Below, piece by piece: positions 4,044 through 6,197 of a stretch of 9,478 nucleotides of DNA. The DNA is from a virus. Taxonomy: Duplodnaviria; Heunggongvirae; Uroviricota; Caudoviricetes. The translations under genes were made by a program, and so were the position numbers. How positions within the stretch are numbered: the first letter of the stretch is position 1; each line of letters opens with the position of its first letter. The DNA is taken from IMG/VR virus record IMGVR_UViG_2648501186_000020; one strand, 5' to 3'. Under the pieces are notes generated by a model, which saw only the letters and a program-made list of their open reading frames with translations, did not search any database and was not told where the DNA came from.

Positions 4044-4168
4044 TTTGTTCTCCACGTATATGCGCTGCACCGCGCTGAATTCCGGTAAAAGGAAGCCCTC
4101 ACCGTCCGGCGATTATTGAGTCAATTACATTTCCATAAATGCCCCCGTAGGGGCGGTTAGTTTCTCCA

Positions 4169-4255
4169 CAAAACAGAGAAGAACACCTGCGGTGGCAGCC
4201 GCCCGGATGGATTGGGTTATGAGCCCGTCGTCCGGTGATGCTCTTCTCTGTTTTG
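4169..4255. repeat. Perfect 14-bp inverted repeat CAAAACAGAGAAGA / TCTTCTCTGTTTTG enclosing a 59-nt GC-rich loop
   Basis: Read directly from the sequence. Arms are exact reverse complements. The loop contains further short complementary segments (GCGG/CCGC, CCGG/CCGG). Confidence 0.85.
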
Positions 4256-4523
4256 TAAAAAGGACGGTACCAGCCGGAAGCAAGGGTACAAGCTGGTACC
4301 GCCAAGACTACACACAGCATAAAGTTGTGGTGCCGGGTGCCTCCCGGTGCCTGGCGAAGGTTGCACACCAGGCGGGTGGGTATCCACAGAAGGTCGACTG
4401 TCAGCCTCAACCTTAACCCGCGTGCGCTGAGCCGCATTCACCACAACGCTAAGGATTCTCTCTGGTTGAAAATACTTAGCTGTTATGTGCCTGCTTTTAG
4501 CCACATCAGGCGAGGTGGACCTA

Positions 4524-4572
4524 GTTATTCCCCAACAACAAGGATTCGGTTAATCTGGTTATCCCCAACAAC
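4524..4572 (+). repeat. Two direct repeats GTTAT(T)CCCCAACAAC, 34 bp apart, immediately upstream of the orf144 RBS; a third degenerate copy (CCACAACGCTAAGGATTC) lies at 4441-4458
   Basis: Copies at 4524-4539 and 4558-4572. The AAGGATTC...CTGGTT context also recurs at 4451-4468 and 4540-4560. Confidence 0.7.
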
Positions 4573-4587
4573 GCAAAAGGAAAAGAA

Positions 4588-5022
4588 ATGTCCGGTAATA
4601 TCTATACGCTGTACAAATCCCACTGTGAAAATGTTGGAAAGTATCGGGGCATTGAAATCAGTGGGGTAGTGTCATCAGTCGAAATAAGCAAAGTTGAATC
4701 AAGGGCAACATTACTTACTCTTTTGGACCTTGTCTTACATGAGCACCGGAAGAAATTCGGCACTCCCTATAATCAGTTGAATGGGAAAAAGGCTCTGGTT
4801 CACCTTATTCTGATGAAGCATCACTGGATGCCAAAACAGATTAATGAGATGAAATTTGATGAACTTCTTCTTTCAATTCAGGATGAACTCACACTTGATA
4901 AAATAAGCGTAACCGCCCAGAAATTTTTAGATTATCGAGACTGGAGATCACAAATTCATCATTTTGATGATTTTGACGAAAATGAATGGGATCCTAATTT
5001 GTCTGCACAATATCTAAAGTAA
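4588..5022 (+). CDS. Orphan hypothetical protein, 144 aa, transcribed opposite to the flanking phage early-left operon
   Basis: ATG preceded by SD AAGGA (4577-4581) with 6-nt spacer. Protein-like composition with His/Lys-rich centre (HEHRKKF, MKHHWMPK) and acidic C-terminus (HHFDDFDENEWDP). A plus-strand intrinsic terminator follows at 5260-5285. No family recognised. Confidence 0.75.
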   Translation: MSGNIYTLYKSHCENVGKYRGIEISGVVSSVEISKVESRATLLTLLDLVLHEHRKKFGTPYNQLNGKKALVHLILMKHHWMPKQINEMKFDELLLSIQDELTLDKISVTAQKFLDYRDWRSQIHHFDDFDENEWDPNLSAQYLK

Positions 5023-5200
5023 CATCCTGTGATAAAACCGTGATTTCCTGATCCAGTTTTTTTAAGGAGTCTATTGTTTCCTGTCGATAAGACAGCACTT
5101 CACGAAGCTGGTTTATAGCTGCCAGCTTCTTTGTCATCCACTCATAAATTTCCTCATCTGTGTAGCCAGGCGCGACGATTTTGGGTTCTGTTTTGTGCAT
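4994..5200 (-). CDS. Small hypothetical protein, 68 aa; first gene downstream of PL
   Basis: ATG at 5200 with strong SD GAGGAG and 7-nt spacer. The track's longer form uses an upstream TTG. Stop TAG at 4994-4996 overlaps the 3' end of orf144 by 29 bp (convergent). No arginine-rich N-like motif; mid-region may be helical (AAINQLREVLSYRQETIDSLKKLDQEI). Confidence 0.6.
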   Translation of the reverse strand: MHKTEPKIVAPGYTDEEIYEWMTKKLAAINQLREVLSYRQETIDSLKKLDQEITVLSQDVTLDIVQTN

Positions 5201-5245
5201 TTCACATCTCCTCAAGTTATCAGTTACTTGTTGATGGGGACCAGA

Positions 5246-5257
5246 TTGTTAAAGAGC
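5246..5257 (-). promoter_or_regulatory. boxA-like element (GCTCTTTAACAA on the minus strand) in the PL leader, 2 nt downstream of a hairpin
   Basis: Minus-strand reading AGCGCCCTACAGGACGCT-TA-GCTCTTTAACAATCTGG. The 12-mer matches the rrn / lambdoid nut boxA consensus as I recall it. Position is between PL and the first PL gene. Confidence 0.4.
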
Positions 5258-5259
5258 TA

Positions 5260-5285
5260 AGCGTCCTGTAGGGCGCTTTTTTGTT
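5260..5285 (+). terminator. Rho-independent terminator, plus strand (likely ends the orf144 transcript)
   Basis: Stem AGCGTCC / GGGCGCT (7 bp including one G-U), loop TGTA, followed by TTTTTTGTTG. The same hairpin on the minus-strand transcript is the one adjacent to the boxA-like element. Confidence 0.55.
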
Positions 5286-5367
5286 GCTAACGAATCATCC
5301 TGGACTTCATATGCCCCAGGCGGCTACTTCGTGGGCGTCCTGCCTGTTCGTTGTTTCGCTTGGGTAC

Positions 5368-5395
5368 ATTATGTATCTCAAAGGTACATTGTCAA
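5368..5395 (-). promoter_or_regulatory. PL-like sigma70 promoter with overlapping operator (OL)
   Basis: Minus strand reads TTGACA (5395-5390), 16-nt spacer, CATAAT (5373-5368). Palindrome TACAT-T-ATGTA (5365-5375) overlaps the -10. GGTACA half-sites at 5363-5368 and 5383-5388 resemble the OR half-sites. Confidence 0.6.
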
Positions 5396-5396
5396 G

Positions 5397-5422
5397 TATA
5401 AAAAAACCTGCCGAAGCAGGTT
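5397..5422 (-). terminator. Rho-independent terminator just downstream of cI (minus strand)
   Basis: Minus-strand hairpin AACCTGC-TTCG-GCAGGTT followed by a 7-U run. It lies 13 nt after the cI stop. Confidence 0.6.
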
Positions 5423-5434
5423 CATAAACATTGA

Positions 5435-6109
5435 TTAGGCTTTGATTTTGTATCTTCTTGGTTTTCCTGAGAAAATCACTGTACCAATTATAGAGCAATT
5501 ACCGTTGATCTTAATGTAAGGCTCAGGCCAGTTTGGGTTTAACGCTTTGAGATAACGCTGTGTCCCATCTTCTATCAACCTTTTGAAGGTGGTTTCACCT
5601 GTATCGTGCATCAATGCAATAACGTCGTCACCGTGGCAGGCAGGTACTTCAGGATCGACAAAAATCATGTCTCCCGGGCGGTACTCATCAATCATTGAAT
5701 CACCTATCACCCGCAAGATATAAGTCATTTCCCCACAGGGTACAGGGCAGGGATACGTTTCTGCTGTGCTCAAATCAACCTCAGAATATCCAACTTCTTT
5801 CCATGCTCCGGCCTGTACCCATGATATGACAGGGACTAATGTGATTTGTTTATTAGTGATTGAAACATCAGGTTTTTTTGTGATGTTCGTTGTCTGGTGT
5901 TCTTGATCGAGCCATCCGACAGGCAGGTCGAAACATTTTTCGATGTGTCGTGCCATGCTGTCACCGATATTTTTAGTAGCACCATCTCCCATAAACCTGC
6001 TGGTCTGGGTTGGCTCGCGATCAATCATAGTGGCAAAGGAAGAATTCCCGCCAACACCATCTCTCAGTTTTCTGGCGTTAGACCGCCGGATGTCATGGAT
6101 TGTTTTCAT
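5435..6109 (-). CDS. cI: Prophage repressor, CI / C2-like, 224 aa (N-terminal HTH, C-terminal S24 LexA-like autopeptidase)
   Basis: C-terminal VIGDSMIDEYRPGDMIFVD contains the S24 Ser motif; TFKRL supplies the Lys. Candidate Ala-Gly cleavage site in WVQAGAW. Divergent from a cro-like gene across an operator-rich spacer. Confidence 0.88.
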   Translation of the reverse strand: MKTIHDIRRSNARKLRDGVGGNSSFATMIDREPTQTSRFMGDGATKNIGDSMARHIEKCFDLPVGWLDQEHQTTNITKKPDVSITNKQITLVPVISWVQAGAWKEVGYSEVDLSTAETYPCPVPCGEMTYILRVIGDSMIDEYRPGDMIFVDPEVPACHGDDVIALMHDTGETTFKRLIEDGTQRYLKALNPNWPEPYIKINGNCSIIGTVIFSGKPRRYKIKA

Positions 6110-6124
6110 AACGAAATTAAAACC

Positions 6125-6197
6125 CTTGTACCGTTAAGGTACAAGTATCTTGAAGGTTCATTTCAATCATGTAATATGTACACCGGAGGTACATATT
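6125..6197 (+). promoter_or_regulatory. OR operators with PR (and presumably PRM) between cI and cro
   Basis: Palindrome CTTGTACC-GTTAA-GGTACAAG (6125-6145). Second inverted repeat AATATGTAC-N7-GTACATATT (6173-6197). PR candidate TTGAAG (6150-6155), 16-nt spacer, TAATAT (6172-6177). Cro SD GGAGG at 6185-6189. Confidence 0.55.

Follow-up and report, generated by a model that had tools for sequence, protein, structure and literature searches.

The lambda gene bor is a lysogen-expressed moron, which encodes a lipoprotein and has no obligatory partner gene. SieB is a membrane protein, and the escape function of phage P22 (esc) is encoded within sieB. P22 SieB aborts the development of superinfecting relatives while sparing P22 itself (PMC10883804). 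In the Rac prophage, racR is followed by ydaG and ydaF, by sieB on the opposite strand with its 3' end touching that of ydaF, and by the small RNA (sRNA) gene kilS and kilR. Both sieB-ydaF of Rac and ymfI-ymfJ of e14 have been listed as convergent excludons based on RNA-seq (PMC12288877). The Qin prophage contributes ydfA, ydfB and ydfC, which were described in a study of the dicBF operon as "small proteins of unknown function" (PMC5069750). The two-gene cassette analyzed here shares features with all of these loci and would be a variant of the prophage morons and exclusion loci known to be expressed in lysogens.

The cassette was found in a stretch of 9,478 nucleotides from the virus record IMGVR_UViG_2648501186_000020, hereafter the window. 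The window starts with proA followed by a tRNA-Thr gene (CGT, 1369-1444), beyond which lies a lambdoid prophage of the SfIV/SfV/e14 type with the order integrase, excisionase, early-left genes of the yfdT/yfdR type, cI, cro, a CII-like gene and an O-like replication gene. The cI gene (5435-6109, minus strand) encodes a LexA-like (S24) repressor. This region is near-identical to the E. coli EC4 thrW prophage and shares 98% identity with Shigella phage SfIV. Relative to SfV and SfIV, approximately 1.3 kb with yfdQ and yfdP (SfV orf31 and orf32) are missing from the window, and the two alignment blocks overlap by 12 bp at the junction (4143-4154), suggesting that the segment was lost by deletion between short direct repeats.

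The gene orf144 (4588-5022, plus strand, 144 aa) is clearly a real gene and not a chance reading frame. An earlier note on this DNA described a good Shine-Dalgarno sequence, an ATG start and a terminator of its own. The Shine-Dalgarno GGA core (4579-4581, within AAGGAA) lies 6 nt before the ATG, and a terminator-like hairpin on the plus strand (5104-5129) is located 82 nt past the stop codon, inside the coding sequence of the facing gene. A second terminator-like hairpin on this strand (5259-5278), with an 8-bp stem and a T run, lies between the facing gene and the early-left promoter, so the orf144 transcript is predicted to end inside or just past the facing gene. The G+C content of the orf144 region is 35-39% versus approximately 45-55% in the surroundings, and low G+C is a typical moron trait. 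A scan of the plus strand of the window revealed no consensus sigma-70 promoter in front of orf144. An extended -10-like element (TGnTATnnT) is present in 13 of 16 homologue loci, about 35-50 nt before the ATG, and Sakai ECs1072 has TATAAT at this distance. The element is located at the junction of flank and cassette in e14 and SfV, and it is degenerate in the clade of the window. In Sakai cultures that had not been induced, a microarray signal was recorded for ECs1072 (PMC2241611), a weak hint of expression.

An intact orf144 is present in 416 of the 422 complete E. coli genomes that carry the gene (of 5426, or ~8%), usually under the ECs1072 RefSeq name, and the protein is identical in all 80 viral contigs returned by a related-locus search. 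Its homologues retain the length, the conserved core and a confident fold at 20-72% sequence identity. A passenger ORF without selected function, or a mis-called gene, would fit with the lack of functional annotation everywhere and of a clear promoter in the window, but conservation of this kind makes such an explanation extremely improbable.

Two further elements near the start of the gene were analyzed. A conserved upstream hairpin (GCCTG…CCACCTCAGGCGG) was tried as an orf144-specific leader and rejected, because it belongs to the backbone flank and is also found in SfV and e14. A 114-aa ORF (4325-4669, plus strand), annotated as gp35 in SfIV, overlaps the start of orf144; most of it falls within the conserved STnc100/ymfH flank, RefSeq annotates no equivalent at the E. 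coli loci inspected, and the call is probably spurious.

The earlier note recognized no family for orf144. The protein is in fact a member of the NCBIfam family NF033230 ("ECs1072 family phage-associated protein"), whose cut-off of 70 bits it exceeds with a score of 157.8 and with residues 4-144 aligned to positions 2-142 of the 142-position profile, and the identical RefSeq protein WP_000016389.1 carries the ECs1072 family name. It also matches phrog_5286 over its full length (E 1.5e-90, positions 1-144 of 144), a family matched by all 48 aligned homologues, and shares 100% identity with SfIV gp36. Both NF033230 and phrog_5286 are annotated as function unknown, and a literature search on accession numbers, PHROG identifiers and the ST64B gene name sb50 retrieved no functional study. 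An exhaustive profile search produced 76 clusters (at 50% identity) of single-domain homologues with approximately 145-155 aa. The family is restricted to Enterobacterales, including Escherichia, Shigella, Salmonella, Klebsiella, Yersinia, Serratia and Pectobacterium, as well as Proteus, Morganella, Pantoea, Citrobacter, Enterobacter and Kluyvera.

Searches of orf144 against Pfam (E up to 0.1) and against the PDB, using both the single sequence and a profile, gave no match. PADLOC-DB v2 (E up to 1) was likewise negative for orf144, the facing gene and the neighbours. A Pfam scan of the 48 homologues assigned no function and matched none of them to SieB (PF14163), while PADLOC returned only two chance-level matches to these homologues (E 0.015 and 0.036). 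Remote homology to a housekeeping phage protein, named in the earlier note as a result that would speak against a special role, did not appear in profile, sequence or fold searches.

AlphaFold modelled orf144 as a compact all-α protein with seven helices (pLDDT 94.1, pTM 0.88). The sequence contains no long hydrophobic stretch, and none was seen at the N-terminus of family sequences. We take orf144 to be a soluble, compact all-α protein of the ECs1072 family. In the 48-sequence alignment, residues L50, R54, L64, G66, A69 and H72 are nearly invariant, W134 is invariant, and H53 is often replaced by Tyr. The confident model found no structural relative and appears to represent an unrecognized fold, so the biochemistry of this protein is probably new. 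Two known catalytic families were considered and rejected: the Rx4-6H motif of HEPN RNases is absent from the family alignment, and neither a conserved H…HD…D motif nor a significant structural match connected orf144 to HD, HD-GYP or HDOD phosphohydrolases.

The basic, His-rich centre (HEHRKKF, MKHHWMPK) and the acidic C-terminus (FDDFDENEWDP) of orf144 had led the earlier note to propose a possible role in nucleic acid binding or mimicry, with orf144 as an effector, a toxin or an anti-defence protein. The three peptides are all present, the gene occupies a prophage hotspot, and no known function contradicts the proposal. However, the charge contrast was overstated. The calculated pI of orf144 is 6.4 (5.3-6.4 across the family), which makes these proteins near-neutral to mildly acidic; they are not strongly basic, and DNA mimics are more acidic. 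Most of the His and Lys residues are not conserved in the 48-sequence alignment. The block-mean pLDDT for residues 111-140 is 92-94, so the C-terminal F.D....EW.P motif is modelled within the compact fold and not as a tail. No fold or profile match to DNA- or RNA-binding proteins or DNA mimics was found for orf144, and the gene does not stand alone. A nucleic acid-binding or mimicking effector is therefore quite unlikely.

The facing gene (orf73 in the ORF list; 4994-5200, minus strand, ATG at 5200) encodes a protein of 68 aa, which corresponds to RefSeq WP_000549623.1 and matches phrog_1744 (E 7.8e-35). The two genes are convergent, and the 3' end of this partner overlaps orf144 by 29 nt (4994-5022). 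In tblastn searches, the partner showed 39-41% identity to annotated ydfC genes over residues 1-66 (97% of its length, E 2e-9), and YdfC of E. coli K-12 matched a partner profile HMM with an E value of 1.8e-14. The N-terminus carries the extended motif EPxIxxPGYTDEEIxxW, in which P6 is nearly and W21 fully invariant. The AlphaFold model of the partner (pLDDT 85) consists of this extended N-terminal motif followed by one long helix (15-67). Neither orf144 nor the partner has a toxin or antitoxin domain according to Pfam, NCBIfam and PADLOC.

The cassette is located directly behind a predicted early-left promoter on the minus strand. The terminator of cI (5423..5404) is immediately followed by a PL-like promoter (5395..5368) composed of TTGACA, a 16-nt spacer and CATAAT (11 of 12 matches), which is the same in e14. 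Two operator-like 17-mers (5352-5368 and 5372-5388) overlap this promoter, and two more lie between cI and cro (6127-6143 and 6177-6193, corresponding to OR) along with a degenerate copy (6144-6160). The underlying pattern TGTA-N7-GGTACA has seven strand matches at four sites against 0.28 expected, a count reached in none of 200 shuffled sequences; apart from PL, its copies are limited to the cI-cro intergenic region. These operators define an immunity type common to the window and e14 ymfK. We read the promoter and 17-mers behind the cI terminator as PL/OL, which would be under repressor control. With the cassette immediately downstream, the partner would be the leading ORF on the early-left transcript, which would have to cross all of orf144 in antisense before reaching the downstream genes. 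The earlier note treated orf144 as a gene on its own, but it is one half of a conserved convergent pair, antisense within what appears to be the PL operon.

Between PL and the cassette is a conserved leader of approximately 65 nt (5286-5351, minus strand, AACGAACAGGCAGGACGCC…GGATGATTCG), which is also conserved in prophages of Yersinia and Pectobacterium whose repressors, operators and immunity types differ. RNAalifold predicted a closing stem with inner hairpins that show a few compensatory changes, and no Rfam family matched the leader. No N-like gene was recognized among the products scanned. The leader is a candidate cis-acting RNA of the nut or put type.

Alignment by blastn against SfV and e14 placed the breakpoints of the cassette at 4518 and 5286/5289 of the window, so that orf144 and its partner occupy an exchangeable segment of 767 bp (4519-5285, both strands). 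Other cargo is found between the same breakpoints: orf33 in SfV and ymfI/ymfJ in e14. Across E. coli, 3629 copies of the left flank were counted (in 2782 of 5426 genomes) compared with 437 of orf144, or ~12% of the slots, which identifies the site as a polymorphic cargo slot and places orf144 among prophage accessory genes. The e14 proteins YmfI and YmfJ were also tried as homologues of the pair and were rejected based on negative HMM scores, with the arrangement alone in common.

A 20-nt inverted repeat with the motif AATCTGGTnnCCCCAnCAACAA has its arms at 4552-4571 and 5228-5247, in the 5' untranslated regions of both genes, and a direct repeat TCCCCAACAAC is present at 4529-4539 and 4562-4572, 33 nt apart. 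These repeats may serve both genes as a regulatory site or may mark the cassette ends; no similar motif was evident upstream of the cassettes of other clades.

The conserved left flank of the cassette, where other sequences have ymfH annotated (an ORF with a frameshift in the window, 4099-4504), contains a full-length match to the sRNA STnc100 (RF02076) at 4254-4477 on the minus strand, with 43.4 bits versus a gathering score of 47 (E 1e-7), as well as a weak DicF-like match at 4262-4316. An sRNA gene, dicF, also lies downstream of the YdfC-type gene in Qin, and the order of partner and sRNA in the window mirrors both ydfC-dicF of Qin and ydaF/sieB-kilS of Rac.

The recurrence of the pair was analyzed using a partner HMM, which was built from five ORFs adjoining orf144 homologues and searched against six-frame translations of the fetched loci. 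All matches with E < 0.01 were convergent with orf144 homologues, with the exception of YdfC itself in two ydfC loci. Partners were detected in Serratia, Yersinia, Pectobacterium, Proteus, Pantoea, an Erwiniaceae genome, phage ST64B, Klebsiella phages, Morganella (weak) and the Sakai prophage Sp4, where an ORF with the partner motif (E 9e-5) faces ECs1072 itself. Among these, the loci from Pectobacterium, the P2-like prophage of Erwiniaceae, ST64B (gene sb50), two Klebsiella phages and Morganella (the weak match) had not contributed to the HMM. In the reverse direction, all four partner homologues sampled, from Citrobacter, Enterobacter, Kluyvera and E. coli M056, were found beside a convergent gene of the ECs1072 family (E 1e-43 to 1e-48), with overlaps of 83-92 nt. 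The distances of the two proteins were strongly correlated across 14 loci (Mantel r = 0.94, reached by 0 of 5000 permutations), which points to inheritance of the pair as a unit, although this statistic is dominated by one well-sampled clade. The pairing is conserved but not absolute: no partner was detected by the HMM at one homologue locus (L019), and YdfC-type genes without an ECs1072 neighbour are present in Qin and PPompW. Since such partners exist without the ECs1072 gene, the role of the partner need not be tied to orf144.

The pair recurs at four kinds of prophage position. In Yersinia, Pectobacterium, Proteus and Morganella, it follows PL between a cI-type repressor gene and YfdP or RdgC. 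In ST64B, the Klebsiella phages, Citrobacter, Enterobacter, Kluyvera and E. coli M056, it is located between the Q antiterminator and holin genes; in two such loci that were scanned (L110 and L113), tR'-like terminators directly precede the partner, and a strong terminator of the ECs1072 gene lies inside the partner coding sequence. In Pantoea and the Erwiniaceae genome, it lies between cox and A in a P2-like early operon, and in Sakai Sp4 it is flanked by a cII-like gene and O. The partner always points the same way as the lytic operon and the ECs1072-like gene the opposite way, and the 3' ends of the pair are adjacent or overlapping at all loci except those of Proteus and Morganella. The neighbourhood survey that the earlier note had called for thus shows a conserved link of orf144 homologues to prophage moron positions.

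This constant geometry bears on the possibility that the unit acts in lysis-lysogeny control, with orf144 transcription, and perhaps the protein too, damping or gating PL, PR' or Pe by interference and so stabilizing lysogeny or timing early or late gene expression. The lambda oop RNA lies between cII and O, and Sakai ECs1072 is found at the same position, antisense between the cII-like and replication genes. More generally, the gene always faces a lytic promoter and is promoter-proximal, and the equivalent pair of e14 has been scored as an excludon (PMC12288877). On the other hand, ~12% of the E. coli slots carry this cargo and different cargos take its place, which is unexpected for core regulation, and pure interference requires no conserved and well-folded protein of 145 aa. 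We consider a control element of this kind improbable.

The anatomy of the locus suggests that orf144 and its partner would be expressed in a mutually exclusive, excludon-like manner. An outward gene opposed to a strong promoter under repressor or antiterminator control is expected to be expressed only in the lysogen, where this promoter is silent. In a repressed prophage orf144 would be made, and upon firing of the lytic promoter the partner would be produced while orf144 is silenced through convergent transcription and antisense RNA. At the sequence level, the 29-nt overlap of the coding sequences, the orf144 terminator inside the partner gene and the predicted antisense course of the PL transcript match excludon geometry. 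Further, orf144 may be an accessory protein of the lysogenic state, most likely of the superinfection exclusion or abortive infection kind, and the partner a lytic-phase antagonist that would spare the phage's own development, in parallel with sieB. We put this reading forward tentatively, as a possibility of somewhat less than even probability; the lack of similarity of orf144 to known defence or exclusion proteins in PADLOC and Pfam counts against it, as do the missing consensus promoter, the degenerate -10-like element of this clade and the occurrence of unpaired YdfC-type genes and of one unpaired ECs1072 homologue. An extended version, in which the pair is a two-component module with a new fold, orf144 being the exclusion or abortive infection effector, the partner its antidote and orphan YdfC-type genes (including that of Qin dicBF) counter-defence functions, is unlikely.

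The pairing, the co-divergence and the opposed expression logic are fitted equally well by the reverse polarity, in which the partner is the active and possibly host-damaging lytic protein and the ECs1072 protein serves as a safety catch during lysogeny that neutralizes leaky partner expression, similar to a toxin and its antidote. The partners are promoter-proximal beside the host-takeover genes dicB and kil and dicF-like sRNAs, and YdfC-type proteins without an ECs1072 gene must have a function of their own. However, ydfC has not been reported to be toxic and was given no function in the dicBF study (PMC5069750), the convergent layout differs from the operons of classical type II toxin-antitoxin systems, and the domain searches mentioned above (Pfam, PADLOC) were negative for toxins and antitoxins. 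For these reasons the reverse polarity also appears unlikely, and the pair does not qualify as a type II toxin-antitoxin system.

For the tentatively preferred reading, with orf144 as a lysogen-state protein and the partner as its antagonist, Rac sieB is the closest parallel. The window has the same order as Rac, with cI, the partner, orf144 on the opposite strand and the STnc100-like sRNA region, and orf144 shares the position of SieB between repressor/PL and the early-left genes, where it is convergent with its neighbour and directed against PL. In contrast to SieB, orf144 has no PF14163 match, belongs to a different family and is modelled as a compact all-α protein. The escape function of P22 is located within sieB, whereas the putative antagonist of orf144 is encoded by a separate convergent gene. 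The likeness to e14 ymfI/ymfJ extends to the breakpoints, the PL promoter, the left flank and a convergent arrangement with a 63-nt overlap of 3' ends, but these proteins are unrelated to orf144 and its partner. Qin YdfC is ~40% identical to the partner, and both genes are promoter-proximal in a repressor-controlled early operon, but the ydfC genes of Qin and PPompW have no adjoining gene of the ECs1072 family. With bor-type morons orf144 shares the low G+C content, its own terminator and the orientation against the lytic operon, and the Q-holin copies (ST64B, Klebsiella phages and others) occupy the classical moron site. Unlike bor, the ECs1072 sequences have no long hydrophobic N-terminal segment and the gene is nearly always paired.

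The earlier note had considered orf144 the most likely protein component of any novel system in the window. It is the most interesting protein there, and the idea of a novel accessory component holds in modified form for the conserved two-gene, antisense-embedded cassette and the unrecognized fold, but not for the protein family, which has already been catalogued. If the proposed reading is correct, it would assign a role to a gene that ~8% of the complete E. coli genomes carry and that also occurs in Salmonella, Klebsiella, Yersinia, Serratia, Proteus and Pantoea prophages, and would provide the first functional lead for YdfC of K-12. The module would also join the short list of prophage accessory systems with built-in self-immunity. 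The underlying design rule, an effector gene placed backwards just after a lytic promoter and opposite a small sense gene, could then be used to find further lysogen-only genes.

Two additional observations were made at individual loci. In a Yersinia prophage (locus L010), a gene of the SieB family (PF14163; 6827-7321, plus strand) separates the orf144 homologue from the repressor gene. It is on the same strand as the orf144 homologue, and both are antisense to the PL transcript, with the PL leader located on the repressor side of the two genes. Finally, a near-palindrome, TGGGATCC(C/T)A, encodes the EWDP that is invariant in the ECs1072 family. At the loci with longer overlaps (L009, L003, L101 and L108-L113), the partner, read from the opposite strand, also ends in …WDP…, whereas in the window (4985-4994) a stop codon truncates the partner just before the WDP point.
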